Below, one piece after another: positions 1,261 through 19,119 of a DNA stretch of 19,119 bases. Origin of the DNA: a virus (Duplodnaviria; Heunggongvirae; Uroviricota; Caudoviricetes); the IMG/VR virus record IMGVR_UViG_2529292923_000023. One strand, written 5' to 3'. The position numbers and the translations under genes are program-made. The notes beneath the pieces are model-generated. The model had not been told where the DNA came from. It ran no database searches and saw only the letters and a list, made by a program, of their open reading frames with translations. Every line of letters starts with the position of its first letter. The stretch's first letter is position 1.

Positions 1261-1355
1261 CTGAATAGATTGAGCCTAGCTCGACGGGGCGAAAAGCGGG
1301 AAGCCTTACCGCCTGGCTCAATCACAAAATAAGGCGCAGCGTAAAAGGTGACGCA

Positions 1356-2321
1356 ATGAACGACTCTCATGAAACAACAGTGGTGCATAGAAATTTATGG
1401 CAGGAATCAGGTATTCCACCTTTGGACTACTGCACGATAGAGCGAGCATCAAAATTATTAAATTGTGAAATTGATGATATATGGCATTGGAAAGATAGAC
1501 TACATATAGACTTTTATGTCTATGCTGACTTTCTTGATTTCATTGAATCTGATGCCACCATCCACTTCAAAAAAGATGCTAATTTTATAACTGATTTATT
1601 ACTTATGTACCCAGAAGAAGTAAGGTTTACATTTCCTTTTCTTATTACCAGCGCAAGCAACGAAGTTTATATCCCAGCATCTGAAAGCGGTGCTTATGAG
1701 CTATTTTATGCACATAAACCACTGACAGTTGAAGACAGCGACAATAAAAATGTTTTTGAACAAATTGGCAAAAACTCTTTTATTGTAAGAAAATCAATTG
1801 CATGTGGATTGTTGCGTGTACGCGGTAGAACAACACGACATTATCATTCACAAGAATGTGGAGAACCATATGTGCGACTTGAAGCAACATTTGATTGTGA
1901 TCTATATAAATTCAAAATGCAAAGTTCCCAAATTCACCTGAGTAGCCTGTCAGATAAAAACATTTATATAACAAAGGCTGATTTAGAATACCTTCATGAC
2001 GCAAAGGTTAATGGAAGTTTTGACGCAGCTAAGAGCAAAAAACGATACGAAATGGCGGTAGAACAGGAACTAATACCTGAAATAAAAAATAGCAACCATA
2101 ATGCCGAGAGACATGCTGAAAACAGGGAAAAACTTTTCAAATCTGCAATATATCTTTTGTCAAAGTATCCTGATGAATGCCGTGGCAAAAAGAAAGAAAT
2201 AAGCCCTGAGAAGTGGCGGGATTGCATAGTGGCTCATAAAGACGAAATTCCACCGTTAGCAATCACAAATGAAGATGTGATTTTGAGACACTTACGTGCT
2301 GCCGCCAACGGTAAGGGGTAG
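1356..2321 (+). CDS. Hypothetical protein, AT-rich cargo gene (321 aa), unknown function
   Basis: Intact ORF with AAGGTG Shine-Dalgarno 8 nt upstream of ATG. Visibly lower GC than flanking int and alpA. Followed by a strong intrinsic terminator, so monocistronic. No recognisable motif; placement between int and alpA matches the position of accessory/cargo genes in P4-like islands. Confidence 0.6.
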   Translation: MNDSHETTVVHRNLWQESGIPPLDYCTIERASKLLNCEIDDIWHWKDRLHIDFYVYADFLDFIESDATIHFKKDANFITDLLLMYPEEVRFTFPFLITSASNEVYIPASESGAYELFYAHKPLTVEDSDNKNVFEQIGKNSFIVRKSIACGLLRVRGRTTRHYHSQECGEPYVRLEATFDCDLYKFKMQSSQIHLSSLSDKNIYITKADLEYLHDAKVNGSFDAAKSKKRYEMAVEQELIPEIKNSNHNAERHAENREKLFKSAIYLLSKYPDECRGKKKEISPEKWRDCIVAHKDEIPPLAITNEDVILRHLRAAANGKG

Positions 2322-2337
2322 AGTAGCTAACTATTCA

Positions 2338-2365
2338 GGCACAGTATCATTACTGTGCCTTTTTA
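2338..2365 (+). terminator. Rho-independent terminator after the 321-aa cargo gene
   Basis: GGCACAGTA-tcatt-TACTGTGCC perfect 9-bp stem followed by TTTTTATT. Confidence 0.6.
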
Positions 2366-2435
2366 TTGTTCATATATGTACAGATACTTCCTCCCGTAAC
2401 GAAGCAACAACTATCGCTAAGAGGTTACGGGAAGC

Positions 2436-2639
2436 ATGAACACCGACACTATTCCTACAAAAGGCTATATCAGACGCTTCCGCCTGGCTGAATTGCTGGG
2501 CGTTAGTGTATCCACCATCGACCGTAAAGTAAGAAACGGTTCACTACCACGTCCGGTAAAGCTGGGAGAAAAAATAACTGCGTTTGATGCGGTTGAGATT
2601 CACAACTGGCTGGCAGAACGCCGCGGGAAGGTGGCCTGA
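2436..2639 (+). CDS. alpA: AlpA/Vis-family transcriptional regulator / excisionase-like HTH protein
   Basis: 67 aa; the motif LPRPVKLGEKITAFDAVEIHNWL matches the AlpA/P4 Vis family signature (FPRPVKI..R.VGW...I..WL). Position directly after the integrase-proximal cargo gene. An 8-bp inverted repeat (CCCGTAAC at 2393-2400, GTTACGGG at 2424-2431) lies in the leader. Confidence 0.8.
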   Translation: MNTDTIPTKGYIRRFRLAELLGVSVSTIDRKVRNGSLPRPVKLGEKITAFDAVEIHNWLAERRGKVA

Positions 2640-3070
2640 TGGAAAAGAAAAACCGCCCATTACAGGCGGCTAATTCAGATATTCGCGTATCTGATGTTAC
2701 GCCCCTGACAAAATCCCTTCAAGCACCAAAGCGCACACCGAAAAAGCATCGTGCCAGAGTCTATATGCTGCGTACTGGTATAGAGGGATGGACAGAAAAT
2801 GACATTCTTCGCTACTGCCGTCTGTCTTCTGGTCGTAACTATGCAACAGAGTTAGAACGCCAGCTTGGAATCACTCTGGAGCGTATCGACGAAAAGAATC
2901 CTGATGGTATCGGAACACACCTTCGCTACCGTTTCTCCTGCCGTGGTGATGTTCTGAAAGTGATCACTCATGTTAACCATCTTGCGAACATAAATGATCA
3001 CAACGGACTTTCTCAGCAGGAAATTGCCGACATTCTGAAACTCTACCCGAACGCGTTTAACGCCGCCTAA
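2639..3070 (+). CDS. Hypothetical protein (143 aa)
   Basis: ATG overlaps the alpA stop (ATGA-type coupling); same-strand operon context; no recognisable motif. Confidence 0.55.
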   Translation: MEKKNRPLQAANSDIRVSDVTPLTKSLQAPKRTPKKHRARVYMLRTGIEGWTENDILRYCRLSSGRNYATELERQLGITLERIDEKNPDGIGTHLRYRFSCRGDVLKVITHVNHLANINDHNGLSQQEIADILKLYPNAFNAA

Positions 3071-3082
3071 CGGAGACTGAAA

Positions 3083-3916
3083 ATGAACATCGAAAAAAGC
3101 AGATTAATTTCTGAGGCCGCCCCTCATCTGAACGCCTCTCTGGGCACAATTAACGGTAATGAATTTGCCGCAATTGTCCCGGTTATTCCTGGTCATATCG
3201 GTGGGCGTGAAACCAATATTGTTAGCGCAAAAGCGTTACACAAAGCGTTGGGCGTGGGAAAAGACTTCTCTACATGGATCACTGATCGCATCTCTGAATA
3301 TGACTTCACCATTGGGCACGATTACTCAGTCCATAAAACAATTTCCCCAAATTTGGGGAAAAGCCCGAATGGCGCGGCTTACAGCAAGATAAAGCACTCT
3401 GGCAGACCCGGCAAAGACTATCTGTTAAGTGTCGGAATGGCGAAAGAACTGGCAATGATCGAACGCAATGATCAGGGTCGCGCTATCCGCCGTTATTTCA
3501 TCCAGTGCGAGGAAGAATTACAGCGTACCGTGCCTGAAATCGCCGCCCGCTATCGTCGCCAGCTAAAAGCCCGTATTAGTGCCGCAAACAACTTTAAGCC
3601 AATGTGCGATGCGCTGAATATGGCCCGTGCCGAGATGGGGAAAATGACGCAGCAACACCACTACACAAACGAGAGCAATATGATTTCTCGTATCGTTCTT
3701 GGTGGGCTAACTGCTAAGCAGTGGGCGCGGATAAATGGCTATTCTGGCGAACCTCGCGACCATATGAACGCAGAACAGCTTGAGCACCTCTCATATCTCG
3801 AAAGCACCAATATCACGTTAATTGATATGGGCATGGAATATGAGCAGCGCAAAGGAGAACTCACCCGCCTGTCGCAACGCTGGCTCGCCAAGCGTCTGGA
3901 GGCGCTCAATGTCTAA
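3083..3916 (+). CDS. Phage antirepressor-like protein (AntA/AntB-type N-terminal domain with C-terminal KilA-C-like region)
   Basis: 277 aa; GGAGA Shine-Dalgarno; the segment NIVSAKALHKALGVGKDFSTWITDRISEYDFTIGHDY resembles the AntA antirepressor domain signature recalled from phage Ant proteins. Confidence 0.65.
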   Translation: MNIEKSRLISEAAPHLNASLGTINGNEFAAIVPVIPGHIGGRETNIVSAKALHKALGVGKDFSTWITDRISEYDFTIGHDYSVHKTISPNLGKSPNGAAYSKIKHSGRPGKDYLLSVGMAKELAMIERNDQGRAIRRYFIQCEEELQRTVPEIAARYRRQLKARISAANNFKPMCDALNMARAEMGKMTQQHHYTNESNMISRIVLGGLTAKQWARINGYSGEPRDHMNAEQLEHLSYLESTNITLIDMGMEYEQRKGELTRLSQRWLAKRLEALNV

Positions 3917-4088
3917 GCCAACAGGAACACCACAACCACAAAAACGCTACAAAGATGCCCACGGAGCACTCGTTACTGTCGAAAGCGTGTCTCACAACCG
4001 AGTGACGTTTTATCGCGACGGGTATCAATCGCCATGCGTACAACCGCTGGCGCGTTTCATGAAGGAGTTCGCGGAGGTTAACCAATGA
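3909..4088 (+). CDS. Small hypothetical protein (59 aa), possibly a DUF4222-like phage protein
   Basis: In-frame ATG at 3909 overlapping the upstream stop (ATGTCTAA); the ORF track's longer 3822 start lies inside the upstream gene. Motif VTVESVSHNRVTFYRDGY is reminiscent of small prophage DUF proteins. Confidence 0.5.
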   Translation: MSKPTGTPQPQKRYKDAHGALVTVESVSHNRVTFYRDGYQSPCVQPLARFMKEFAEVNQ

Positions 4089-5152
4089 TACCCGTCCAGA
4101 AGAAGACATTTTCACTGGCTGGTATGTCGCCAAAATCCAGCAATATGACGGCAAAGTCAGGCATTAATACAGCAGATACAAGCAAAGTTTATCATTTGCT
4201 GGTGGTCGGAACGGATGCCTTAACCATACCAGAAATCTCGGGCGATGATATTAGCATTGAGAAGGTCAGCGGCTGCGCCAGAAAATTTCTGGTCGTAGAT
4301 GATGTCTTCCGCTCGCGTAGTGACTCCACAAAAACCTTCATCCGCGCGCGTGACGTTAACGAAATGAGCGCGATGTACTGTGCATCTGGTGCTTCCAATA
4401 GCGAGTTTTCGGAGTCCATAAAAAAGAGCTTGCCGTTATGCGGCAACACGGTTTATGGTTATAAGGCACCTCATAAAACGGGTGCCGGGATTGGCGTCCT
4501 GGTAAATCGAATGGCGACATATGACGCGCCGAGCGTCTTTTTTTATGTCGTAGGTCTGACTCACCCATTTTTTGGGCGTTGGTGTATAATCCAGCGCCTT
4601 TGTCAATCAATGGTGGCTCAGGCAGGGGCTTCTTCGGAAGCGCCGGTATCCATTCGAGCCGGTTACGCCAACCCTGTCTGGGCTACCACCAGCGAAATTG
4701 GCGTTTCCGGTGGTAGCGTTACATGCTATCGAATGGAGGCTGCCACATGCTGGCTACTACCCCTACCCAAAAACCGCAATTTATCTGGATTATCGCCGCA
4801 GTTCGCCGCGATTGCCCGACAATTACCGCCAGAATTCATCATATTGCTGCCGAGTCTGAACGCGATGCTCGCCGTTCTCTGGTGCGCGATCACGTCTGCT
4901 TTTTTGCTGGTCGTATCCGCATGGAGGTGGCACATGATTAAAACCTACGATGTGCATATGGATCCCCTCGAACGCACAAGCCAGATCATCACACTGACAG
5001 AAGTGATTAACGACATTCTGGTGAGCAACTCTCCCTCACGAGACGAAAGACTGAAGGCGTTACTCGCGATATTGGATCTCGCCGTTCGTGACGTTCATTT
5101 CCTGCTGGAAGGTGGCGAAATGCCAGTAAAAACGGGGGCAACCAATGAATAA
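4085..5152 (+). CDS. Long stop-free ORF (355 aa), probably composite: a possible N-terminal coding part, an internal likely non-coding structured region, and a real small 3' gene (MIKTYD..., start 4934)
   Basis: ATGA overlap with the upstream stop supports the 4085 start. Between about 4560 and 4930 this frame uses rare codons (CTA CTA CCC CTA, TTA, CGA, AGG) and gives W/C-rich implausible peptide, while a different frame (4747-4941) has good codon usage and a GGAGG Shine-Dalgarno. The ATG at 4934 also has a GGAGG Shine-Dalgarno. True gene structure is uncertain. Confidence 0.3.
4747..4941 (+). CDS. Small hypothetical protein (64 aa)
   Basis: GGAGG 7 nt upstream of ATG; enterobacterial-like codon usage (CGC, CTG, GAT, GCC); stop overlaps the next small gene's start region. 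Confidence 0.35.
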   Translation: MLATTPTQKPQFIWIIAAVRRDCPTITARIHHIAAESERDARRSLVRDHVCFFAGRIRMEVAHD

Positions 5153-5339
5153 CTCAATTAATACCCCTCGCCTTACGTCCGCACTTCAATTAATCGAGCA
5201 AGCAGCGGCTGTCCTGGTTGCTGTCAGTCTTTCGGCTGAAGAAATGGACGCTACTGATGTCGTGGATGCGATTAAAGCGTGCTCATCTTTGGTTAACGAT
5301 GCCCGTGCAGAGCTGGTAATTCTTGGGGGTGAAAAATGA
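5145..5339 (+). CDS. Small hypothetical protein (64 aa)
   Basis: ORF with upstream GGGGG Shine-Dalgarno-like run; start overlaps the preceding stop; part of a co-directional coupled operon upstream of the primase. Confidence 0.55.
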   Translation: MNNSINTPRLTSALQLIEQAAAVLVAVSLSAEEMDATDVVDAIKACSSLVNDARAELVILGGEK

Positions 5340-5599
5340 ATATCAACTTAATTTATCGTCATCCGTGTGAGCTGGAAATTGAATCATTGCTGAGCCGTGA
5401 AGAACCATATCCAGACACATTCACTCTTGCAGATCGCACGACTGAACGGCTTACCAGAGCGCGCACAGGTCTGGTTCATGTGATGAATGAGATTCTTCCA
5501 TCGGTGGGAGGGGAACAGGCGACAGTAATCACTAGCTGGCTACAAAAAGTTACCTCTCTGATAGATATCAGTTTAATCGATGCGGAGAGTGCGAAATGA
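5336..5599 (+). CDS. Small hypothetical protein (87 aa)
   Basis: ATGA overlap with the upstream gene; GGGGGTGA Shine-Dalgarno. Confidence 0.55.
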   Translation: MNINLIYRHPCELEIESLLSREEPYPDTFTLADRTTERLTRARTGLVHVMNEILPSVGGEQATVITSWLQKVTSLIDISLIDAESAK

Positions 5600-5817
5600 C
5601 CAACATCCAGCTCATTGAAGCGCAATGTCGCATCGAACAGGTTCAGACTGTTTTAGGGTTCTGGCTTGAAGGGGCCAGCCCCAGCAACAGAGACAAGTTA
5701 ATGATTGGCGCGGTTATGTCACTGCTCAATGGCGTACCAGAAGCTATTCAGGAAGCAGACGAATTGTTGGGCAAATATGAGTTACAGAATCATTCAGGCG
5801 AGGCGAAACATGAATAA
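5596..5817 (+). CDS. Small hypothetical protein (73 aa)
   Basis: ATGA overlap with the upstream gene; GGAGAG Shine-Dalgarno. Confidence 0.55.
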   Translation: MTNIQLIEAQCRIEQVQTVLGFWLEGASPSNRDKLMIGAVMSLLNGVPEAIQEADELLGKYELQNHSGEAKHE

Positions 5818-6412
5818 TTTCTTAACTTTCCAGGCAGAAGCAACGCCTGACGGCGTAAACATCATGCACCGCAGCAACGATGGCATGACAGAACGCGTTG
5901 AGACCGTCTCATATATTGATGCCGTAAATCGTCTGGATGCCGGGGATTATGACGATAAACCAGATGAAGGTATGTCAATACATCTCGCTATTGCCGATGG
6001 CGGCAACCAGGGATATTTCGATTACACATCACAGCATAACGTCATTATGTGGAGATGGTTGATCGCAACAGTATTCATGCTGGAAATGAGAGAGGAAAAC
6101 GGCACTGTCAGCATCATTGATGATACTGGCAATCCTTCCGAAGTGGCTGTTTATTCCAACGGCATCGTCGCCATGCCGCTGTATCCAGTAGCAGAGCGCC
6201 TCGCTATGGCAAACAACATTGAGGGCGCGATGATAGAACGTTTTGGCATCGAGTCTGGCACAGAACGCTCCATCATTTTCTACAGAGCCATGATGGATGT
6301 GGAACAAGGAGCACTGACTCCATTTGGTCGTGAAACGCTTGCTGAACTTCACAACAGCTTTATAGCTGAACTGAATGAAAACGGCATGCCATCGGAACCA
6401 GTGACGCACTGA
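5810..6412 (+). CDS. Hypothetical protein (200 aa from ATG 5810; ORF track gives a longer 5705 start inside the upstream gene)
   Basis: ATG at 5810 preceded by a GAGG Shine-Dalgarno and overlapping the upstream stop by 8 nt; acidic protein with no recognisable motif. Confidence 0.55.
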   Translation: MNNFLTFQAEATPDGVNIMHRSNDGMTERVETVSYIDAVNRLDAGDYDDKPDEGMSIHLAIADGGNQGYFDYTSQHNVIMWRWLIATVFMLEMREENGTVSIIDDTGNPSEVAVYSNGIVAMPLYPVAERLAMANNIEGAMIERFGIESGTERSIIFYRAMMDVEQGALTPFGRETLAELHNSFIAELNENGMPSEPVTH

Positions 6413-6422
6413 GGATGGAACC

Positions 6423-6764
6423 ATGATTACTAAAAATTTCCGACTGAATGCGCTGGCAAATAAGTATGCGTCAGCACTGTATAACCACATTACCTCCACC
6501 AGCGGCGGGGACTATTTCATGATTGATGCGGACGGAGAGGCCGTACGTGTGGAAATCGTCAATGGAGTAAAAGGCGTTCGCAGCCTGATCGATAGTTACG
6601 CACTGGCAGCCATGAAAGTGTTCTACCCGCAGTGGGAAACCGTGGGGATCGAGCTTCTTGATCGTTGCGTCACTAAGGACAGATTGACTGACGTCGGGCG
6701 TGAGATATGGCAAAGCATGGTTAATGACATGGGCGCAACTGTAGCGGGAGGTTCTCATGCGTGA
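6423..6764 (+). CDS. Hypothetical protein (113 aa)
   Basis: GAGGA Shine-Dalgarno 7 nt upstream of ATG; operon context. Confidence 0.6.
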   Translation: MITKNFRLNALANKYASALYNHITSTSGGDYFMIDADGEAVRVEIVNGVKGVRSLIDSYALAAMKVFYPQWETVGIELLDRCVTKDRLTDVGREIWQSMVNDMGATVAGGSHA

Positions 6765-7128
6765 AAATGCAGAAATGGCGCTTAGCTCCGCAATCGGAGA
6801 GCAGGTGGCAAAGATTGCTGGTGCTGTGTGGATTCATAACCTTCATTCTACTGGTGAAGAGAAAATGGCAATTCAGACGCCAGAGGGACGCACTATTACT
6901 ACATCTCTGAAGCCGTCAGATGTTTGTGATCTGATTTGCGCATTCATGTACCCAGCAATGAGGACTGTCCACGGCGATAAGTGGAAACTTGCGACAACCG
7001 CTGAATTTGATATGTGGCTAAACAATGATGGCATGCTGACTGATTACGGAATAACCAAGTGGCAGATGCTGGTTAGCCATATCGCAAACGCTATAGACCA
7101 CGTGGGGTACGGTGATGCGAAACATTGA
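6757..7128 (+). CDS. Hypothetical protein (123 aa)
   Basis: GGGAGG Shine-Dalgarno; start overlaps the upstream stop; immediately precedes and overlaps the primase gene. Confidence 0.6.
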   Translation: MRENAEMALSSAIGEQVAKIAGAVWIHNLHSTGEEKMAIQTPEGRTITTSLKPSDVCDLICAFMYPAMRTVHGDKWKLATTAEFDMWLNNDGMLTDYGITKWQMLVSHIANAIDHVGYGDAKH

Positions 7129-9871
7129 TCTTATCCGTCAGGTTATCAGTGCGTCTGAAAACAACTGGCCTCATGTGCTGGGCTGCCTGAACATAAATGT
7201 CCCTGACTCTCCGCGCCGTCATGCTCCCTGCCCTGCATGTGGGGGCAAAGATCGATTCCGGTTCGATGACAACGGGCGCGGTAGCTTCATCTGTAATCAG
7301 TGCGGCGCTGGTGATGGGCTGGATTTAATTAAACGCGTAAATAACTGCGACACAACAGAGGCGGCGCTGCTTGCCGCTGATGTTCTGGGTATTGATTACC
7401 GGACAACGGAAACACCAGAAGCCACCAGCCAGAAACGGGAACAACTGGAAACCGAGCGCCAGCAACGCGAACAGGAGCGCCTGAAAAGGGCGGAGAAGGA
7501 CGAACAACAAAGACGGGATACGTTTTCCCGTCAGTTTGATGACATGCGCAGAAAGGCTGTAAACGGCAAATCTGATTATCTGGTTGCGAAAGGGGTAGGT
7601 GATTTTACATTCCCCGTGTTGCCCGATGGATCTCTGTTGCTGGCGCTGGTGGATAAATCCGGCGCAGTCACAGCAGCACAGACTATTACCTCACATGGTG
7701 AAAAAAGACTCCTGACAGGTTCAGCAAAGCGGGGGGCATATCACGCCATAAACGCACCAGAAACAACACAGAGCATCTTAATCGCAGAAGGGCTGGCAAC
7801 GGCATTATCTGCCCATTTAATTCGTCCAGAGGCGCTGACAGTGGCGGCGATTGATGCCGGGAACCTGTTATATGTCGCCCAGGTACTGCGGGATAAATTT
7901 CCTTCAGCACAAATCATCATTGCTGCGGATAACGACCACAGCGAAGGAAGACAAAACACGGGGAGAATAGCAGCAGAAAAAGCAGCTTTATCTGTTTCTG
8001 GATGGGTGGCATTACCCCCGACAGGTCACAAAGCAGACTGGAATGATTACCACCAAAAACACGGCATTAAATGCGCCACAGAAGCGTTCAATAAGTCAAT
8101 GTACCAACCACAGGGTAATGGCGTGAAACAGGAGCCACAGACCATTGAGGGAAGCGATTTTAAGGTTATGGATACCGACCCACTGAAACCAAGAATAGAA
8201 AGCCGCGAGGATGGTATTTATTGGGTATCTCCGAGAGCTGACAGCCAGAGTGGAGAAATCATCAATAACGAAAGCTGGTTATGTTCTCCGTTAAGCGTTA
8301 TCGGTACTGGCAGAGACGATAAAGACCAGTATCTCATTCTTCGCTGGCTGTCGTTTGGTTCTGAAACGCCGACAACCGCTGCCATTCCACTGGCTGATAT
8401 TGGTGAACGTGAAGGATGGCGCACACTTAAAGCTGGTGGGGTAAATGTCACGACCAAAAGCAGCCTCAGAGCAATACTGGCAGACTGGCTACAACGCAGT
8501 GGCTCTCGTGAATTGTGGCGTGTTGCTCATGCCACTGGCTGGCAATGCGGAGCGTACATCATGCCTGATGGGGAAATCATCGGAACACCTGAAAATCCTG
8601 TGCTGTTCAGCGGGAGAAGCTCAGCCGCAGCCGGATATACCGTCTCAGGGAGCGCGCAAAGCTGGCGTGATAACGTGGCGCGTCTGGCCTTTGGTAACTA
8701 TTCAATGATGACCGGGATCGGCGCAGCACTGGCAGCACCATTGATTGGGCTGGTGGGCGCTGACGGGTTCGGCATTCATTTCTATGAGCAGTCGAGCGCA
8801 GGTAAGACCACCACGGCAAACGTGGCGAGCAGCTTATACGGCAACCCTGATTTACTGCGGCTGACGTGGTACGGAACCGCGCTGGGGCTGGCAAATGAGG
8901 CCGCCGCCCACAATGACGGACTAATGCCGCTTGATGAAGTTGGTCAGGGCGCTGATCCTGTCAGCGTTTCACAGTCTGCCTATGCGTTATTTAACGGTGT
9001 AGGGAAACTGCAAGGCGCTAAAGATGGTGGAAACCGGGATCTAAAACGCTGGCGTACAGTGGCAATCAGCACCGGAGAAATGGATTTAGAAACATTTATC
9101 GCTACTTCCGGGCGAAAAACCAAAGCCGGGCAACTGGTGCGACTGCTGAATATTCCGTTGAGTAAAGCAGTACGCTTTCACGATTACCAGAACGGAAAAC
9201 AGCACGCAGACGCACTGAAAGACGCTTACCAGCATCACCATGGCGCAGCCGGGCGTGAGTGGATTAAATGGCTGGCAGACCACCAGCAACAGGCTATTAA
9301 AACTGTTCGTGATTGCGAAAGCAGATGGAGAAGCCTGATCCCACCCGATTATGGTGAGCAGGTTCACCGTGTAGCCGCGCGATTTGCCATTCTGGAGGCC
9401 GCATTGTTGTTAGGCGAGGTTGTAACAGGCTGGGATGCTCAGACATGCCGTGATGCGATACAGCACAGCTATAACGCATGGTTGCGCGAGTTCGGCACAG
9501 GTAACAAAGAGCATCAGCAGATTATTGAACAAACGGAGGCATTTCTTAATGCCTATGGGCTTAGCCGTTTTGCACCATTTCCATACAGCCCGGCAGATTT
9601 GCCCATCAAAGATTTAGCCGGATACCGTCAGCGTGGAGAACATGACGAAAGCCCAATGATTTTCTACACATTCCCGGCCACATTTGAAAAGGAGATCGCA
9701 TGTGGTTTCAACGCAAAACAGTTTGCTGAAGTGTTGAAAAAAGCCGGGATGCTAACCCCACCAAACAGCGGTCGTGGATACCAAAGAAAATCACCACGTA
9801 TTCAGGGACGACAAATAAACGTTTATGTACTCAATTACCAGCCAGGAGATTATAACTCATCTGAAGAATGA
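7115..9871 (+). CDS. P4 alpha-like primase-helicase (zinc-ribbon + Toprim + DUF927/D5-type P-loop NTPase)
   Basis: 918 aa from ATG 7115 (the ORF-track start at 7112 is a GTG). N-terminal CPACGG...CNQCG zinc-binding motif. Toprim-like acidic motifs (IAEGLATA; IIIAADNDH). Walker A (SSAGKTTTANV) and Walker B-like (LMPLDEVG) in the C-terminal half. An iteron-type origin lies directly downstream. Confidence 0.9.
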   Translation: MRNIDLIRQVISASENNWPHVLGCLNINVPDSPRRHAPCPACGGKDRFRFDDNGRGSFICNQCGAGDGLDLIKRVNNCDTTEAALLAADVLGIDYRTTETPEATSQKREQLETERQQREQERLKRAEKDEQQRRDTFSRQFDDMRRKAVNGKSDYLVAKGVGDFTFPVLPDGSLLLALVDKSGAVTAAQTITSHGEKRLLTGSAKRGAYHAINAPETTQSILIAEGLATALSAHLIRPEALTVAAIDAGNLLYVAQVLRDKFPSAQIIIAADNDHSEGRQNTGRIAAEKAALSVSGWVALPPTGHKADWNDYHQKHGIKCATEAFNKSMYQPQGNGVKQEPQTIEGSDFKVMDTDPLKPRIESREDGIYWVSPRADSQSGEIINNESWLCSPLSVIGTGRDDKDQYLILRWLSFGSETPTTAAIPLADIGEREGWRTLKAGGVNVTTKSSLRAILADWLQRSGSRELWRVAHATGWQCGAYIMPDGEIIGTPENPVLFSGRSSAAAGYTVSGSAQSWRDNVARLAFGNYSMMTGIGAALAAPLIGLVGADGFGIHFYEQSSAGKTTTANVASSLYGNPDLLRLTWYGTALGLANEAAAHNDGLMPLDEVGQGADPVSVSQSAYALFNGVGKLQGAKDGGNRDLKRWRTVAISTGEMDLETFIATSGRKTKAGQLVRLLNIPLSKAVRFHDYQNGKQHADALKDAYQHHHGAAGREWIKWLADHQQQAIKTVRDCESRWRSLIPPDYGEQVHRVAARFAILEAALLLGEVVTGWDAQTCRDAIQHSYNAWLREFGTGNKEHQQIIEQTEAFLNAYGLSRFAPFPYSPADLPIKDLAGYRQRGEHDESPMIFYTFPATFEKEIACGFNAKQFAEVLKKAGMLTPPNSGRGYQRKSPRIQGRQINVYVLNYQPGDYNSSEE

Positions 9872-10633: not shown

Positions 10634-11095
10634 ATGGAACTAAAATTTATTGATAACCCTGTGCGATTACAGGCCTTTCTTAACGAGCCAGGCAATACCG
10701 AAAATATTGTTGAGCCGGGGCACACGTACTACATCAAGCCTGATGCGGTATATCTCGGCATCTACGAAGGATTAGTGCTGGCTGGCGTTCATGAAGTGCG
10801 TAACTTCTGGCATAGCGTTGTTGAATGCCATGCGGTGTACGACCCCGGATTCCGTGGTGAATATGCACTGCAAGGGCATCGATTATTCTGCAAATGGCTT
10901 CTCGAAAACTCACCATTCCTTAACAGCATCACCATGGTTCCTGACACCACCAAATACGGACGGGCAATTATCCGTTTGCTTGGCGCTACCCGTGTTGGTC
11001 ACCTTGATGATGCTTATATCAGATGTGGTAAACCCGTCGGCGTAACGCTTTATCAGTTAACTCGGCAACAATATAAGGAATTCAGCGAATGTTAA
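10634..11095 (+). CDS. Hypothetical protein (153 aa), Cys/His-containing, unknown function
   Basis: ORF 16 bp after the 53-aa gene; overlaps the next gene start (coupled); no recognisable motif. Confidence 0.6.
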   Translation: MELKFIDNPVRLQAFLNEPGNTENIVEPGHTYYIKPDAVYLGIYEGLVLAGVHEVRNFWHSVVECHAVYDPGFRGEYALQGHRLFCKWLLENSPFLNSITMVPDTTKYGRAIIRLLGATRVGHLDDAYIRCGKPVGVTLYQLTRQQYKEFSEC

Positions 11096-11766
11096 TTACC
11101 CATATAGCTCATAAACATCTCAATCGTGCCGTATACGAAAAAGGCGGTGATGGTGGTGCCTCTAAAGCTCAGGCGAAGGCCCAGCAGCAGGCAATTGATT
11201 TGCAGCGCGAGCAGTGGAATACGGTGATGAATAATCTCAAGCCGTATGCAGAAGTCGGATTGCCTGCTTTACAACAACTGCAAGGACTGATGACTCTGGA
11301 AGGGCAGAATAAAGCCGCGAATGATTTCTTTGGTTCTGGTTTATATAAAACACAGGCAGATCAGGCCCGTTATCAGAACCTTGTCTCAGCAGAAGCTACC
11401 GGGGGGCTTGGCTCAACAGCTACCAGTAACCAGTTATCTTCCATTGCGCCCATGCTTTATAACAATTGGCTCAGTGGGCAAATGCAAAATTATGGAAACC
11501 TGCTAAATGTCGGGATGAATGCGGCATCAGGGCAGGCAACGGCAGGGCAAAACTACGCCAATAATACCGGACAACTCTTGCAGGGGCTTGGCGCTATTCG
11601 TGCAGGTCAGGCGCAGCAGCCATCCAGTCTTGCGCGTGGTATTGGTGGGGCAGCATCAGGCGCTTTAGCGGGTGCGCAACTTGGTTCCGTTGTTCCTGGA
11701 ATAGGAACTGCGGCCGGCGCTATTGGTGGTGGGCTTATTGGTCTTGTTGGGGGGCTTGGATTCTAA
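11089..11766 (+). CDS. Hypothetical Gln/Ala/Gly-rich protein (225 aa) with glycine-zipper C-terminus; possible phage ejection/internal virion protein (P22 gp7-like by size and position)
   Basis: No cysteine; low-complexity Q/A/N/G composition; C-terminal GxxxG-rich hydrophobic tail (GAIGGGLIGLVGGLGF); translationally coupled to neighbours. Confidence 0.65.
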   Translation: MLITHIAHKHLNRAVYEKGGDGGASKAQAKAQQQAIDLQREQWNTVMNNLKPYAEVGLPALQQLQGLMTLEGQNKAANDFFGSGLYKTQADQARYQNLVSAEATGGLGSTATSNQLSSIAPMLYNNWLSGQMQNYGNLLNVGMNAASGQATAGQNYANNTGQLLQGLGAIRAGQAQQPSSLARGIGGAASGALAGAQLGSVVPGIGTAAGAIGGGLIGLVGGLGF

Positions 11767-13187
11767 TGGCGACATGGCAACTTGGCGGGCTGCCTAGCAT
11801 GGCACCGCAAAATGATAATGCTCCTCGTTCTTCCGTTCCTCAGCCTGTGCAGTATCAGCAGCAGCCAAACGTAGGTTTAATGGCGCTACAGGGGCTAAGA
11901 GGCGTTGCTGAGATTAATCAGCAGGCACGTCAACAACAGCGTAAATCAGAGTTTCAGAAAGCATATGCCGGGGCTTTTGAGTCTGGAGACAGAAACAAAA
12001 TGCGCAGTCTTATTTCTGAGTATCCAGAAGAATTTGAAAGCGTTCAGAAAGGGATGGGCTTTATTGATGACGACCAGAGAAATTCTATTGGTCATCTTGC
12101 GACTAGTGCTCAAATCGCATCTTCGCTCGGAACTGGGGCATTTGGAAAATTCATAGCAGATAACGAAGATGAAATGCGTCGCTTGGGAATTTCTCCTGAG
12201 TCTGTTGCCGAAATGCATGTTAATGATCCACAGGGATTCCAGCGGCTTGCTGGTAGTATGGCACTGTTTTCTCTCGGTCATGAGAAGTATTTCGATATCA
12301 AAGATCAAATGGAAGGTCGGGATATTGAGCGAGGCAGGCTGGCAGAGACAATCCGCAGCAATCAGGCTGGCGAAGCACTTCAGGCGAGAGGGCAGGATAT
12401 TAGCCGAGCAAATGCGTTAACGTCAGCATATGCACCAACAGCAGCAATGCAGAATTACAATCAGTACGCTCAAATGTTAAAGGCGGATCCAGAGGGGGCG
12501 GCGGCATTTGCGGCAGCGGCTGGAATTAATACAAACGCCAAAAAATTAATGAGTGTTAGAGAAAACGATGATGGCACTGTCACAAAATACTACACAGACG
12601 GAAGTGAAGAGCAGGGAAAACTAAACCAGCCAATATCTGGAGATGGGTTTCGTCCAATAGCTTTGCCAACAGCCCAAAAGATCATGGAAAAGTCGCCAGA
12701 AGGGGCTAAAAAAGCTGCTGGATTTGCATACAGGGTTAGGGATGCTCTTGATTCAATAGATACACTGAAAGACCAGCTTAGCCCACAGCGAGTGGCGATC
12801 ATTAATAATGCTTTGGGTAATGGGACGCTGGCTAACTTAACGCTCAGCCCAACAGAGCAGCAATACGTTGTTAATGCTAATGACGCAATAATGGCAATAC
12901 TCCGTCAGGAAACAGGGGCAGCTATCGTACCTGCTGAAATGTCAAAATATTATCAAATGTATTTCCCTCAGCCTGGCGACTCCACAAAAACCATTGATAC
13001 CAAGCGCCGGAAGATGGAAAACCAGTTCAATTCGCTGAAAGCTGCTTCTGGTCGAGCTTATGATGCTTTGCGGGTTATTTCAGCAGTTGACAGAGGAACG
13101 TCTTCTTCGTCGCAGACATTGCCGCAATCTGAGCAGGTATCACAGCCAGCAGCCAGCAGTAACTTTTCTTCACTATGGGGTGATTAA
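11766..13187 (+). CDS. Hypothetical Gln/Ala-rich protein (473 aa); possible phage ejection/internal virion protein (P22 gp20-like by size and position)
   Basis: TAATG start overlap; no cysteine in 473 residues; Q-rich N-terminus; long ORF with good codon usage. Confidence 0.7.
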   Translation: MATWQLGGLPSMAPQNDNAPRSSVPQPVQYQQQPNVGLMALQGLRGVAEINQQARQQQRKSEFQKAYAGAFESGDRNKMRSLISEYPEEFESVQKGMGFIDDDQRNSIGHLATSAQIASSLGTGAFGKFIADNEDEMRRLGISPESVAEMHVNDPQGFQRLAGSMALFSLGHEKYFDIKDQMEGRDIERGRLAETIRSNQAGEALQARGQDISRANALTSAYAPTAAMQNYNQYAQMLKADPEGAAAFAAAAGINTNAKKLMSVRENDDGTVTKYYTDGSEEQGKLNQPISGDGFRPIALPTAQKIMEKSPEGAKKAAGFAYRVRDALDSIDTLKDQLSPQRVAIINNALGNGTLANLTLSPTEQQYVVNANDAIMAILRQETGAAIVPAEMSKYYQMYFPQPGDSTKTIDTKRRKMENQFNSLKAASGRAYDALRVISAVDRGTSSSSQTLPQSEQVSQPAASSNFSSLWGD

Positions 13188-15292
13188 TGGCTAAAGCATG
13201 GAAAGATGTTATCGCCTCTCCACAGTATCAGGCGTTAGCACCAGAACAAAAAGCGCAGGCTCAGGAGCAATACTTCAATGAAGTCGTTGCCCCGCAAGCC
13301 GGAGAAAGTGTAGAGCAGGCTAAGCAGGCTTTTTATGCTGCCTATCCACTACCATCAACGAATGAAATAGACCGATCCCAATCAGCAACTCAAAATATTC
13401 AACATACATCATCTGATAATTCTCTTGCGTCAGGGTATGCAAAGTTAGCTACTCAGCAAAGAGAGGGGCTTGAGCGTTCAGCAGAACAGGGAGCCAGTCT
13501 TGGGGCTGCGATGCGCGATGCTATAACAGGCGAAAGCCGAATGACTTCAGAGATGGAGAGACTGCAAAATGTCGCCTCTGCCCCAGAATTGAACTCACTA
13601 AGCATGGATGCCCTAAAGGCTGGATGGTCCCAACTTTTCGGCTCTGACGCGTCTCAGGAAAAGATTCTTCAGGGAATGGGGGCGACATTAAGGCAGGATG
13701 AGAAGGGGAATACTATCGTTTCTCTGCCATCAGGTGATTATGCCCTGAACAAGCCGGGTTTATCACCGCAAGACCTGACTTCGTTTCTTGCTAATGCGTT
13801 GGCGTTTACACCAGCGGGCAGGGCTGGAACGGTGCTTGGTGCCATAGGAAAATCAGCAGCTACAGATTTAGCACTACAGGGAGCCACCAGCCTTGCTGGT
13901 GGAGAAGATATTGATCCGTTACAAACGGTAATTTCTGCTGGCATTGGTGGTATTGGTAAGGGGCTGGAAAATACAGCGAGTGCGGTTTCGAGGGCTGTTC
14001 GTGGTGATATGTCGCCTGAAGCAAAGGCTGCTGTCGACTTTGCATCGGAAAGAAATCTGCCGTTAATGACCAGTGACATGCTGAAAGATAAAACCTTTAT
14101 GCAGAGTCAGGCTCAGACATTAGGCGAAAGAGTTCCTTTTTTTGGAACCGGTAAGAATCGGCTGAATCAACAACAAGCACGAGAAAATTTAGTCAGAACA
14201 TTTAGCGATGGTCTGGGTGGCATTTCTGATAAACAGCTTTATGAATCTGCGACTAAAGGGCAACAAAAATTCATTGAGGCAGCAGGAAAGCGATATAACC
14301 GCATAATTGACGCTATGGGGGATACCCCTGTCGATCTCTCAAACACGGTAAAAGCTATCGACAATCAGATTGCCGTGTTAAGCCGCCCGGGCAAATCTCA
14401 GGATAGAGCCGCGGTAAAAGTCTTGCAGCAATTTAAAGACGATATCACCAGCGGACCAAATGACCTGCGCCTGGCGAGGGAAAACAGAACCGATCTTCGA
14501 AAGCGATTTATTGCGTCATCTGACACTGTTGATAAAGATACGCTCCAGAAAGCCAGCGATATTATCTACAAGGCATATACGGCGGATATGAAAAAAGCCG
14601 TAGCCAAAAATCTTGGAGCAGACGAAGCCATTAATATGGCAAGGGTTGATCGCTCATGGTCTAAATTCAATAACATGATGGGAAGAACGCGCGTTCAAAA
14701 GGCAATAGCCAGCGGCAAGGCCACGCCTGAGGATGTAACAAAACTCGTTTTTAGCCAAAGCCCATCAGAACGTTCTCAGCTTTACAGGCTTCTGGATGAC
14801 AATGGTAGGCAAAACGCACGAGCAGCCATAGTTCAGAATGCTGTAGATAAGGCGACTGATCCGTCTGGAAATATCAGTGTTGAGAAGTTTATTAATGCGT
14901 TACACCGGAACAGGAAGCAATCAGCAACTTTCTTTAAAGGCGTACATGGGAAGGAACTGGACGGCGTTATTAAATACCTCAACGATACAAGACACGCGGC
15001 AAAAGCGAACGTTCAAAACTTAAATGGTCAGCAGCTTTATGGATTGTTAGTTGGTGGTGGCATCATAAACGCAGCAGTATTAGCGGGGATGCTAAAAACG
15101 GCTGCGTTTGTTGTTCCTGCTGCTGGTGCCGTAGGCGGAGCAGCGAAGGCATACGAAACCCCTGTTATACGAAATGCCTTGTTACGTCTGGCAAATACGC
15201 CAAAAGGTAGCACAGCATATGACAGAGCGATCAGTACGGTCACACAATCGCTCACCAGAGTCGCACAGGCATCACAAAAAGAAGCTCAATAA
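13187..15292 (+). CDS. Hypothetical Gln/Ala-rich protein (701 aa) with hydrophobic Gly/Ala-rich C-terminal segment; possible phage ejection/internal virion protein (P22 gp16-like by size and position)
   Basis: TAATG start overlap; no cysteine in 701 residues; C-terminal LLVGGGIINAAVLAGMLKTAAFVVPAAGAVGGAAKAY membrane-like segment. Confidence 0.75.
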   Translation: MAKAWKDVIASPQYQALAPEQKAQAQEQYFNEVVAPQAGESVEQAKQAFYAAYPLPSTNEIDRSQSATQNIQHTSSDNSLASGYAKLATQQREGLERSAEQGASLGAAMRDAITGESRMTSEMERLQNVASAPELNSLSMDALKAGWSQLFGSDASQEKILQGMGATLRQDEKGNTIVSLPSGDYALNKPGLSPQDLTSFLANALAFTPAGRAGTVLGAIGKSAATDLALQGATSLAGGEDIDPLQTVISAGIGGIGKGLENTASAVSRAVRGDMSPEAKAAVDFASERNLPLMTSDMLKDKTFMQSQAQTLGERVPFFGTGKNRLNQQQARENLVRTFSDGLGGISDKQLYESATKGQQKFIEAAGKRYNRIIDAMGDTPVDLSNTVKAIDNQIAVLSRPGKSQDRAAVKVLQQFKDDITSGPNDLRLARENRTDLRKRFIASSDTVDKDTLQKASDIIYKAYTADMKKAVAKNLGADEAINMARVDRSWSKFNNMMGRTRVQKAIASGKATPEDVTKLVFSQSPSERSQLYRLLDDNGRQNARAAIVQNAVDKATDPSGNISVEKFINALHRNRKQSATFFKGVHGKELDGVIKYLNDTRHAAKANVQNLNGQQLYGLLVGGGIINAAVLAGMLKTAAFVVPAAGAVGGAAKAYETPVIRNALLRLANTPKGSTAYDRAISTVTQSLTRVAQASQKEAQ

Positions 15293-15296
15293 CTGG

Positions 15297-15319
15297 TTAG
15301 CCATGGATGGCTAATTTTT
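15297..15319. terminator. Hairpin terminator between convergent genes (TTAGCC-atggat-GGCTAA + TTTTT)
   Basis: 6-bp stem, 6-nt loop, T-run on + strand; lies between the stop of the 701-aa gene and the stop of the minus-strand membrane gene. Confidence 0.45.
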
Positions 15320-15661
15320 GTTCTTTGCTCTCATCCATAGGTAAAGAAGGGAAAGAACAAGACAAAAAACAGAGAATAGATAACCTACCTCATATGGTGC
15401 GCCAAAAAAATTAGCCATTGATACGGGCAAAAAAGCTGAAGCGATCAAAATTGAAAGGCAAAAAATAAGCCCAGTAATATAGTTTATTAAATTCTTAAAT
15501 GAGAAACGTTTTGCTTGATTTACGGTCTTAACGAACGATCGCTTAACGACGGATAAAAGCAAATAGATGGCGACAGTTGCTAATGCCCCTTTCCACCAGT
15601 CTGGATATAGTTTTGCGACAATCAGACCAAGGAAAACCATGATGACAGCCTGAGCATTCAC
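15311..15661 (-). CDS. AT-rich polytopic small membrane protein (about 116 aa from GTG at 15661; the ORF allows an upstream ATG at 15730)
   Basis: Strong AAGGGAGGG Shine-Dalgarno 5 nt upstream of the GTG at 15659-15661; three to four hydrophobic helices; markedly AT-rich relative to neighbours; convergent with the cassette. Confidence 0.55.
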   Translation of the reverse strand: MNAQAVIMVFLGLIVAKLYPDWWKGALATVAIYLLLSVVKRSFVKTVNQAKRFSFKNLINYITGLIFCLSILIASAFLPVSMANFFGAPYEVGYLFSVFCLVLSLLYLWMRAKNKN

Positions 15662-15846
15662 ACCAACCCTCCCTTTAGCTTTGTTTAGAATGGCAATCAT
15701 CATATATCCAAGACATGGCATTTGGTACATAGCTTGGGTCGGGATTTCAAATCCGATCCCCGTTGATGGGGCCGTTACAGTACGCGCATATCCTCTTTAT
15801 GTGAAACAGGAAGATTTTTCTGATATCACTGCCACAGCAAAACACC

Positions 15847-16156
15847 AATTTCGTGACCAGTACGCGCGCGAGGGGTATCAGTTGCAAAAAATTTTGCAAC
15901 TGCGTCCGACCAGTACGCACACGATGGCGGGGAGCACCATAAAACTGTTCTCTACATAAGACAGAGTGGTGGTGATGTGTTGATTATCGGCGTATATGCG
16001 CACAGGACGCGCTATGACGATGTTTTATGCGGGTACACCAATCACATGTATCTGGTGTGATCAATCGCGTTACATGACATCTCATGTTGTGCTGGTGATT
16101 ATCACGACGTTCTGAATCTGGCCTTTGCCTGATATTTTGCGACAAGTACGCGCGCG
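15847..16156. repeat. Non-coding region carrying a 24-bp repeat family (AATTTCGTGACCAGTACGCGCGCG-like; copies at 15847-15870 and 16134-16156, a third at 17743-17766) plus degenerate copies and palindromes
   Basis: Direct reading; three near-identical copies sharing the TACGCGCGCG core; imperfect palindrome CAGTTGCAAAA-AA-TTTTGCAACTG at about 15879-15902. Confidence 0.5.
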
Positions 16157-16184
16157 TAGCATCGACAGCATACACATTGGATAT

Positions 16185-16385
16185 TCATTTTGTGACCAAT
16201 GCGATAAGTAGCGGGATAAGAATTGATAAAATCAACAGGACGATGATCCACTTTTGATTCTCGTCCATCTTATCTGCTAGGCGACGCTCCATTCCGTGCA
16301 TATCACCGCGAATGGCAATCATCTCATTGCGAACATCCGAGAAGTGGTTGGCTTGATGTTCAATGTGTGGCGTTCTGCCTTTCAT
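16185..16385 (-). CDS. Small C-tail-anchored membrane protein, XhlA-like (66 aa)
   Basis: GAGGA Shine-Dalgarno upstream; charged helical N-terminal part followed by one C-terminal transmembrane segment (WIIVLLILSILIPLLIALV), the architecture of XhlA/holin-like small proteins. Confidence 0.5.
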   Translation of the reverse strand: MKGRTPHIEHQANHFSDVRNEMIAIRGDMHGMERRLADKMDENQKWIIVLLILSILIPLLIALVTK

Positions 16386-16464: not shown

Positions 16465-16920
16465 TTATACGCTGACCTTACAATCAATCACCGCTTTTAA
16501 CTTTTCAGCATTGCTTCCCTGACGCTTCCACGCGCTGTAAATATCTTTATCCCACGCTTTACCAGCTTTTGTTTGATAGCCTGCTTCATTGATCCGTTCA
16601 GCTATCACACGCCCATTATCAAATCCCTGTTGGATGGTATCGGCAATGATCTTCATAACTGCCGTTTCGTTATATGGTTTTGGTGGGATGTTCGGCTTTC
16701 CGGCAATAAGCGACGCAGCGGCTTTTTCCATGCGCTCCACCAGCCCAAGCATTCGTGAATCAATAGACTTTTCCGGCTGCCCCAGCTTCATGCGAATCGC
16801 ATCAACAAGCCAAGAGGTTTTATCTCCTCCAGAAGCGAGAACAGACCGATTAAACTCATCCTGCAATTCAGATGGGATGCGGAACGCGATCAGATTAGAT
16901 TTGCTCATTGCAAAGACCAT
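16465..16920 (-). CDS. Ribbon-helix-helix (Arc/Mnt-like) transcriptional regulator (151 aa; alternative start at 16908)
   Basis: N-terminal SNLIAFRIPSELQDEFNRSVLASGGDKTSWLVDAIRM fits the Arc-family RHH pattern (beta-strand, helix, Gly turn, helix); palindromic operator-like sites immediately upstream; divergent from the PerC-like gene. Confidence 0.6.
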   Translation of the reverse strand: MVFAMSKSNLIAFRIPSELQDEFNRSVLASGGDKTSWLVDAIRMKLGQPEKSIDSRMLGLVERMEKAAASLIAGKPNIPPKPYNETAVMKIIADTIQQGFDNGRVIAERINEAGYQTKAGKAWDKDIYSAWKRQGSNAEKLKAVIDCKVSV

Positions 16921-16969: not shown

Positions 16970-17022
16970 GCTCAAATATCAGCCAGAAAATAACAGACCA
17001 ATCACAAATCTATCGCTGTGTT

Positions 17023-17143
17023 GTTGGTTCAGAGCTGGGCTGTGTTGGTTCAAAATGAGTTGATGTTGGTTCAATATTTTAGAAAAAACACAATAAAAAC
17101 AACGCTCTTTACAAATTGAACCAACTGAACCAACTGAACCAAC
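17023..17143. repeat. Iteron cluster 2 (crr-like): 3 GTTGGTTCA (17023-17031, 17044-17052, 17065-17073), AT-rich spacer, 3 tandem TGAACCAAC (17117-17143); inverted copy of cluster 1
   Basis: The reverse complement of 17102-17147 is essentially identical over about 46 bp to 9890-9935 (AAAGGTGTTGGTTCAGTTGGTTCAGTTGGTTCAATTTGTAAAGAG), with continued but diverged similarity beyond. Confidence 0.75.
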
Positions 17144-17179
17144 ACCTTTTTGCTTATCTATATAATCTGAGAGGCAGAA

Positions 17180-17467
17180 ATGATAAAGGACAGGAAAGCT
17201 GAAGAGCTGGAGTCAAAAGGGCTATACCGGAGAGCTGCCGCACGATGGGCAGAAGTCATGATGCTGGCAGATGGCGATAAAGAACGTGAACATGCAGCAA
17301 ACAGACGCTCTGAATGTATCCGTAAGGCGGCACGCCCACCAGCAACTACAGACAGATTCGGAGATTTAAGACAGGCAGTTAAGCGGACTCATTCGGCTCT
17401 TGGTATGGATGAGGAAGCGAGAGGGTACTTCAGGCGTTATCGCGATAAAGATTGCCAGAGACAGTAA
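17180..17467 (+). CDS. PerC-family transcriptional regulator-like protein (95 aa)
   Basis: N-terminal AEELESKGLYRRAAARWAEV matches the PerC/Pch family signature (ELE.KGLWRRAA.RW); GAGAGG Shine-Dalgarno; a TATAAT hexamer at 17161-17166 just downstream of the iterons. Confidence 0.65.
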   Translation: MIKDRKAEELESKGLYRRAAARWAEVMMLADGDKEREHAANRRSECIRKAARPPATTDRFGDLRQAVKRTHSALGMDEEARGYFRRYRDKDCQRQ

Positions 17468-18114: not shown

Positions 18115-18157
18115 GTAGACTTACTTTCCTTGCAATCGATATCACATGGAGTGGGCA

Positions 18158-19119
<962 letters not shown>

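Follow-up and report, generated by a model that had tools for sequence, protein, structure and literature searches.

A four-helix membrane protein encoded in the sieA position of an EcCIMP1-like phage satellite: a candidate functional analogue of SieA

The Imm protein of phage T4 is a blocker of DNA entry. HK97 gp15, Tuc2009 Sie2009 and TP-J34 Ltp also block DNA entry, and in the case of SieA all known types of the gene lie between genes 16 and 9, while the motif FxRYPxEAxxFNK unites the SieA types A to C (PMC10883804). Escape from SieA was traced to mutations in gp16 and gp20, in the C-terminal portion of each, and how one small SieA recognises very divergent gp16/gp20 conduits is an unsettled question (PMC10883804). 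Immunity has also been described for EcCIMP1, a phage-inducible chromosomal island (PICI) mobilised by the P22-like phage Kapi1, for which helper-dependent excision and packaging were demonstrated; this island adds superinfection immunity against its helper, although none of the known defence systems could be detected there (PMC11773190). Here we describe a gene at positions 15311-15661 (minus strand) of the IMG/VR virus record IMGVR_UViG_2529292923_000023, a DNA stretch of 19,119 nt which is called the window below. The gene encodes a predicted four-helix membrane protein of 116 amino acids (aa) and occupies the sieA position next to the gene of a gp16-type ejection protein. The protein is put forward as a candidate non-homologous functional analogue of SieA, which would block DNA delivery by P22-like phages; we give this proposal about an even chance of being right.

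The gene, its position and its predicted product

In the P22 record genes 14, 7, 20 and 16 are directed rightward and are followed by sieA, orf59a and mnt in the leftward direction. The same order and orientations were found in the window. Its P22-type ejection cassette on the plus strand is complete and consists of DUF2824/gp14 (10634-11095), gp7 (11089-11766), gp20 (11766-13187) and a gp16-type ejection protein of 701 aa (13187-15292), 30% identical to P22 gp16, and the membrane-protein open reading frame (ORF), a 66-aa ORF and an ORF for a ribbon-helix-helix (RHH)-like protein follow leftward. The membrane ORF is convergent with gene 16 and 18 nt apart from it, that is, it takes the position of sieA in P22. 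The gene 16/sieA/mnt arrangement, to which a preliminary description of this DNA had referred, therefore agrees with the P22 record.

The coding sequence comprises 116 codons and a TAG stop and begins with GTG. It is preceded by the Shine-Dalgarno sequence AAAGGGAGGG (15676-15667, minus strand), the GGAGG core of which is kept across genera, with a spacer of 5 nt (TTGGT). The string GGAGG-TTG(G/A)T-GTG-AAT-GCT-CAG is retained in the E. coli, Edwardsiella and Yersinia loci, where the upstream DNA is otherwise unrelated, and the distant relatives (34-38% identity) start at the same residue, with an ATG codon and an MN-x-Q N-terminus. The longest ATG-initiated form of the ORF reaches 15730. In sister islands, however, this in-frame "extension" precedes unrelated genes, in one of which a canonical signal peptide (MNQLKRLVVSGLLFASFGANA) begins at the same GTG. 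The conserved Shine-Dalgarno string, the common start residue of the relatives and the occurrence of the leader in front of unrelated genes place the start at GTG 15661. The longer in-frame ATG starts found in RefSeq (129-139 aa) were rejected, since the extra stretch is translated leader, common to sister islands with other genes, and on the same evidence the RefSeq models of 109, 129 and 130 aa have a wrong start.

The G+C content of the ORF is 0.379, against 0.474 for both the window and gene 16. In the homologues it is 0.39-0.40; the family values of 0.38-0.40 compare with 0.47-0.49 for the gp16 genes, and the sieA genes are in the range of 0.34-0.36 (P22 sieA 0.337). The pairwise ratios of nonsynonymous to synonymous substitution rates (dN/dS) between loci from different genera (four genera) were 0.13-0.42, which reflects purifying selection, thus the ORF is a selected protein-coding gene and not a chance reading frame. 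It is true that the annotation never went beyond "hypothetical protein" and that the RefSeq starts are inconsistent (109, 116, 129 and 130 aa), as would be the case for a chance or decaying ORF without function. Besides the dN/dS values, however, the start, the helices and the Shine-Dalgarno sequence are conserved across genera and the full gene is present in 227 of the 5,426 complete E. coli genomes (~4%), and we consider the lack of a function extremely improbable.

Four hydrophobic segments could be recognised in the protein, with Kyte-Doolittle 19-residue means of 1.7-2.4. The topology was derived from the hydropathy and the positive-inside count: the first transmembrane helix (TM1) is predicted at about residues 4-19 and is followed by a periplasmic PDWWKG turn, TM2 (26-40), a basic cytoplasmic loop (41-58), TM3 (59-85), a periplasmic GAPYEVG turn, TM4 (94-109) and a basic tail, MRAKNKN. 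Loop 2 and the C-terminal tail together contain 8 lysine and arginine residues (9 with K40 at the cytoplasmic end of TM2), while loops 1 and 3 contain 1; this charge distribution indicates an N-in/C-in topology, in which the two turns on the periplasmic side are very short, and the 116-aa protein probably resides in the inner membrane. The AlphaFold2 model also had four helices, although its confidence was low (predicted local distance difference test, pLDDT, 56 in the first run and 65 in the second). Within the family TM1 with the periplasm-facing KLYPDWW turn, and TM3, are the most conserved parts, with the APYEVG turn close behind, and the cytoplasmic loop and the tail are the least conserved ones. 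The leftward ORF with a strong Shine-Dalgarno sequence, the low G+C content and the small multi-helix membrane protein, all claimed in the preliminary description, were accordingly borne out.

Homology between the membrane protein and SieA was ruled out by four lines of evidence. The BLASTP comparison with P22 SieA gave E=0.77. When the family profile was aligned with SieA profiles by hhalign, the probability was 0.3% for type A and 0.1% for type B (E. coli HS, HS1), and the positive control, SieA type A against type B, yielded 99.5% (E=1e-22). The "SieA-like" family phrog_7745 was not matched by the membrane protein at E values up to 1, and it recognised both P22 SieA (9e-109) and HS1 SieA (6.5e-21). 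Finally, the FxRYPxEAxxFNK motif, which is present in P22 and HS1 SieA, is absent throughout the family alignment, and the protein ends ...LLYLWMRAKNKN straight after TM4. A shallow hhalign run had aligned RFSxxxLxNYIT with KFSxxxFENRIT of SieA (2%); this alignment vanished when a deeper one was used and was taken as noise. The Pfam set used is invalid as a test for SieA, as it is without PF26849 and P22 SieA itself was unmatched.

Searches of Pfam, PHROGs, NCBIfam and PADLOC with the membrane protein gave nothing significant (the best hit was phrog_38297 with E=0.085, the NCBIfam scores were far below the cut-offs and PADLOC gave none), the PDB sequence search had no match, and the BFVD fold search with the low-confidence model returned holin-like, non-significant matches (best E=0.76). 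Since it matches no other phage family, the protein was not assigned to the Imm type. GtrA and SMR proteins are of comparable size and have four helices, and on account of its 116 aa and four helices the protein could be conceived as a small transporter or flippase of this size class, acting for example in surface-polysaccharide modification by lysogenic conversion. The gtr operons do occur in P22-like phages (PMC2629481). Nevertheless, searches of Pfam and NCBIfam at E values up to 10 gave no hit to a transporter family, GtrA and SMR included, no gtrB- or gtrC-like genes were found in the flanks, and such a function seems very improbable.

A family linked to one type of gp16

As judged from the sequence comparisons, the protein belongs to a previously undescribed family, which is of very small size. 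An exhaustive hidden Markov model search of 1.84 billion cluster representatives detected 7 family clusters, and a word-indexed search detected 22, from Escherichia, Salmonella, Edwardsiella and Yersinia. The identity is 72-88% across Escherichia, Edwardsiella and Yersinia and 34-38% in the deeper relatives, with the start, the helix pattern and the Shine-Dalgarno sequence kept. As neither tblastn nor blastn found a match of the gene in 50,697 phage genome records, the gene is absent from the sequenced isolates and was seen just in prophages, PICIs and IMG/VR contigs. The scan of genome contigs, with one genome per species, also gave no relative.

Besides the window itself, the comparison took in seven loci drawn from assemblies and metagenomes and a further 17 found in IMG/VR, which makes 25 loci. 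In each of the 25 the family gene is convergent with gp16 at a distance of 17-24 nt, and the accompanying gp16 is always of a single sequence type, 58-99% identical to that of the window and ~30% to that of P22. The linkage persists also in the loci whose membrane protein is as little as 34-38% identical. This positional linkage is good guilt-by-position evidence for an exclusion role. The carriers are of two kinds, P22-like prophages having portal, coat, needle, Ant and tailspike genes (loci L005, L008, L023 and L027-L034) and PICIs with primase and PerC genes (the window, L004, L020-L022, L024-L026, L035 and L036). In L005, L008 and L027-L034 the gene adjoins and converges with gene 16 of a P22-like prophage, as is the case for sieA, while the window's own element is a PICI without tailspike.

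The locus L023 (1239-7585, compared with 11089-15661 of the window) deserves separate mention. Its gp16 and membrane genes are both 99% identical to the PICI versions and stand beside phage gp10 and needle genes, whereas gp20 and gp7 are merely 47-54% identical. These identities indicate that gp16 and the membrane gene move as a unit, by recombination, between satellite and P22-like phage. The strict linkage to one gp16 type and the transfer of the pair would also suit a partner of its own gp16, either an immunity protein or chaperone which protects the producing cell from the membrane-inserting gp16 or a protein needed for gp16 to work; moreover, the most hydrophobic stretch of this gp16 type is C-terminal (~617-655), which is not so in P22 and HS1 gp16. 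However, the same gp16 type occurs with unrelated slot genes, and without the membrane gene, in the viable isolate phage N7 (67% identical) and in the island FP4 (92%). In addition, a hairpin, GGTTAGCCATGGATGGCTAATT, followed by a T-run (15295-15326, plus strand) takes up the 18 nt behind gene 16 and runs into the 3' end of the membrane-protein coding sequence; it looks like the intrinsic terminator of the rightward ejection-gene operon, and L008 has the same arrangement after gp16. The position of the gene, convergent with the late operon and behind this terminator-like hairpin, disfavours co-expression with gp16, and we regard a role as gp16 partner as quite unlikely.

The slot behind gene 16 was found to have a single occupant at each locus, SieA type A in P22, SieA type B in HS1 and the protein described here in the family loci; these occupants exclude one another. 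In the sister islands L006 (3207-3563) and L019 (2072-2425), beside a completely different gp16 type, the occupant is a chimeric four-TM protein, the first ~42 residues of which (TM1-turn-TM2, MRGQAVIIILLGLIVAKLYP...) are homologous to the family (hhalign 97%) and the rest of which is unrelated; the N-terminal hairpin of the family behaves as a separable module. Other occupants are a periplasmic protein with a signal peptide in the island FP4, a lipoprotein in EcCIMP1 and, in phage N7 with its gp16 of the same type, a single-pass membrane protein. All the occupants are envelope proteins, and those with measured composition (ORF14 of N7 was left out) are all of low G+C content, 0.34-0.43. Such a pattern is to be expected of products which meet the incoming ejection conduit.

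The stretch from the slot to the RHH/PerC end behaves as a cargo hotspot. Defence-like cargo was observed there in L019 (3247-4209), L006 (4514-5377), L008 (4039-5648) and L004 (4663-5643), and the changing cargo of the sister elements near the slot comprises Abi (abortive infection)-family proteins, ImmA/IrrE, the YafO toxin and ClpP. Abi, ImmA/IrrE and toxin-antitoxin genes adjoin the slot in the sister islands, a neighbourhood which also fits an exclusion role.

The presence of these Abi, YafO, ClpP and ImmA/IrrE genes in the sister loci leads to another explanation, in which the membrane protein is an envelope-acting moron with some other role: a membrane-depolarising abortive-infection effector, a small toxin/antitoxin-like protein, or a host-fitness or envelope-stress factor. 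In P22-like phages the stretch from gene 16 to the tailspike gene is known as a hotspot of morons, called the "ant moron" (PMC2629481), and the protein matches no characterised family, which leaves room for such a role. On the other hand, the nearby cargo varies freely, whereas in all 25 loci the membrane gene keeps its place ~18 nt behind a gp16 of one type, and the consistent occupancy by envelope proteins is confined to the slot directly after gene 16, as expected for action on entering conduits. We therefore consider this explanation rather unlikely, although it deserves to be taken seriously.

The carrier island and the region upstream of the gene

By its gene content the element in the window can be classified as an EcCIMP1-like PICI, a phage satellite of E. 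coli, and not as a P22-like prophage. The island is ~18 kb long, lies between yicC and dinD and is 99.9% identical to an island of E. coli strain 755. The gene order is integrase, AlpA, AntA/B antirepressor, DUF4222, Ash, Icd-like, DUF927 primase-helicase, gp14-7-20-16, the opposite-strand trio (the membrane, the 66-aa and the RHH-like ORFs) and PerC. Its gene set matches that of the EcCIMP1-like PICIs, whose size is about 18-20 kb, and capsid, tail or lysis genes are absent; the backbone in the window takes up 1-9871. Several of its proteins (WP_000181940.1, WP_001024679.1 and WP_001018524.1) have accessions identical to those of EcCIMP1. Presumably the particles made by the helper receive the satellite's own ejection proteins. 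In EcCIMP1 the ejection genes were described just as "DNA transfer" or possible morphogenesis genes (PMC11773190).

The chromosomal dinD gene (18146-19113 of the window), which is intact in strain 755, is interrupted after 84 codons by an IS21-family element with an istB-like ATPase gene (18451-19113, minus strand). Beside the integrase gene there is a 321-aa ORF (1356-2321) with a G+C content of 0.37, no Pfam family and a weak PADLOC match (PDC-S31, E=0.002), which may be a further cargo or defence gene.

Upstream of the membrane gene a leader of 75 nt (15662-15736, minus strand) is 96-99% identical in sister islands whose downstream gene is unrelated. EcCIMP1 has neither a convergent gene nor this leader. 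The leader is likely the 5' untranslated region or a promoter-proximal region for the cargo of the slot. No sigma-70 consensus was found upstream of the gene in the window or in L008, and no promoter or terminator could be assigned in the 523-nt gap between the membrane ORF and the 66-aa ORF.

The larger part of this gap is an unannotated backbone element of 448 nt (15737-16184) of the EcCIMP1-like PICIs, located upstream of the coding sequence. Its features are four GCGCGTACT(G/T)GTC-like repeats and, at 15879-15902, a perfect 11-bp palindrome, CAGTTGCAAAA-AA-TTTTGCAACTG. The element is 95-99% conserved in 523-545 of the 5,426 complete E. coli genomes (~10%), whatever gene follows, it is present also in EcCIMP1, and it had no match in the 50,697 phage records. 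Its substitutions show no codon periodicity, frame-breaking indels of 1, 2, 11 and 50 nt are tolerated, no Rfam match was obtained and the RNA fold z-scores were -0.2 and -1.8. On the basis of the missing periodicity, the indels, the lack of an Rfam match and the unconvincing fold it was judged to be non-coding. The element may hold the regulatory region for the slot; an operator array, a packaging site (pac) or a replication origin (ori) could be raised as questions about its role.

The 66-aa ORF (16185-16385, minus strand) is in the position of P22 orf59a, to the product of which its protein has no similarity. In this protein the N-terminal part is coiled, and the C-terminal one contains a hydrophobic helix. 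The preliminary description had called it XhlA-like, but the protein has no Pfam match and its sole match is phrog_6324, a family with no known function. The 151-aa RHH-like ORF (16465-16920, minus strand) is in the mnt position, and its N-terminus resembles the RHH part of P22 Mnt, with 27% over 37 aa and E=0.001 in the pairwise comparison. The membrane gene was earlier thought to stand at the end of an operon with these two genes. This could not be upheld, as the 523-nt gap separates them, 448 nt of it being the element conserved irrespective of the following gene, and as other loci, in P22-like prophages, have different upstream neighbours, including a divergent gene. Between the RHH-like gene, which ends at 16920, and the PerC gene, which starts at 17180, a cluster of TGAACCAAC / GTTGGTTCA repeats was observed in the divergent region (17019-17145 of the window). 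It has three tandem direct copies with 9-nt spacing, together with inverted copies, and is operator-like in appearance.

Proposed action and comparison with described systems

Regarding the earlier suggestion of a superinfection-exclusion candidate like SieA, the slot, the low G+C content and the small membrane protein were confirmed. The protein is no homologue of SieA, however, and the element is a PICI satellite and not a P22-like prophage. Position, composition, compartment and the mutual exclusivity with sieA make a SieA-like job, done by different means, the most economical reading. According to this the membrane protein would be produced while the prophage or satellite is quiescent (integrated) and would act at the inner membrane, where it would keep incoming P22-like particles from delivering their genomes. 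It might engage the gp16/gp20 conduit, assembled by the ejected proteins, from within the membrane or at the periplasmic face. Since the family conserves TM1, the turns and TM3, and the hydrophobic stretch of the gp16 type is C-terminal, it is suggested that the protein recognises this stretch of gp16 (~617-655) laterally or from the periplasmic face. The time of expression, the inner-membrane location, the exclusion activity and the target are what we infer for the protein.

Several points weigh against a SieA-like function. No sequence, profile or fold links the protein to SieA or to any characterised exclusion protein. The topology is unlike that of SieA, for the ~50-aa cytoplasmic loop and the conserved cytoplasmic C-terminal motif are missing. 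Expression of the gene in the integrated state is an assumption, since a promoter could not be assigned. The immunity given by EcCIMP1 is a parallel only and is not creditable to the membrane protein, because EcCIMP1, the one relative of the island that was studied by experiment, lacks the gene. The structure model is of low confidence (pLDDT 65), and the core of the argument is guilt by position.

A wider interpretation may also be considered, namely that the protein represents a fourth, non-homologous class of injection blockers. It would form a two-gene "entry plus exclusion" module with one gp16 lineage, be exchanged between P22-like phages and their PICIs, recognise the hydrophobic C-terminal part of incoming gp16 in the membrane or at its periplasmic face, and stand among the interchangeable slot proteins behind immunity of the EcCIMP1 kind. 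In this full form the interpretation is tentative, and we find it more doubtful than probable. An obvious place to seek the cause of EcCIMP1-type immunity is the position behind gp16, where envelope proteins replace one another. The family is annotated just as hypothetical and is invisible to defence finders of the PADLOC type. Should the protein prove inactive against phages, it would be no more than an ordinary orphan membrane moron.

The proposed action has a mechanistic analogy, and an analogy only, in the immunity proteins of pore-forming colicins. These are small inner-membrane proteins with three or four TM helices which neutralise an incoming protein that inserts into the membrane; they recognise it laterally, within the bilayer, and are specific for one toxin type, next to which they are encoded. 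The tight linkage of the membrane gene to one gp16 type is similar. The colicin immunity proteins, however, guard against their own toxin type from siblings, whereas here the "toxin" would be a DNA-conduit protein of a phage.

T4 Imm, HK97 gp15, Sie2009 of Tuc2009 and Ltp of TP-J34 are comparable in being small envelope proteins of phages or prophages which are thought to stop genome entry after adsorption. They differ in their target phages and topologies, and no significant PHROG, Pfam or PADLOC match connects the membrane protein with them.

EcCIMP1 shares with the window island the backbone of int, AlpA, AntA/B, DUF4222, Ash, Icd-like, DUF927 primase, gp14-7-20-16 and PerC, and the non-coding element of ~450 nt is present in both. 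EcCIMP1 has its own integrase and its attachment (att) site at tRNA-Thr, while the window island is at yicC/dinD. Its gp16 is of another type, 906 aa long and with a transglycosylase domain, and is followed by a co-directional gene for a 232-aa lipoprotein instead of the membrane-protein gene. The segment 15311-16920 can also be regarded as a version of the variable region between gene 16 and the tailspike gene, the "ant moron" or immI region of P22-like phages (PMC2629481). The version in the window differs in being located in a satellite, without tailspike, arc or ant, and in continuing with a PerC-family gene.

The closest comparison is with P22 SieA. Both genes occupy the slot directly after gene 16 of a P22-type ejection cassette and are convergent with it, both encode small polytopic membrane proteins, the G+C content of both is well below that of the neighbours, and both are found in P22-like prophages of Enterobacterales as the single occupant of the locus. 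The membrane-protein family, however, occurs in PICI satellites as well and is tied to a gp16 type which is only ~30% identical to P22 gp16. SieA is longer, 164-212 aa against 116 aa. Type A has three TM helices and types B and C have four, and a long cytoplasmic loop comes after the first core TM helix, a profile which the hydropathy and the positive-inside count did not give for the membrane protein: the loop of roughly 50 aa in SieA is replaced by an 18-aa basic loop which joins two tight helical hairpins. The conserved motif of SieA is cytoplasmic, while the membrane-protein family conserves TM1, the periplasmic turns and TM3 instead. SieA is the sole member of the slot with a studied mechanism. 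An unrelated protein in the same slot, tied to one gp16 lineage, offers a natural comparison, which could map the part of the ejection conduit that is targeted.

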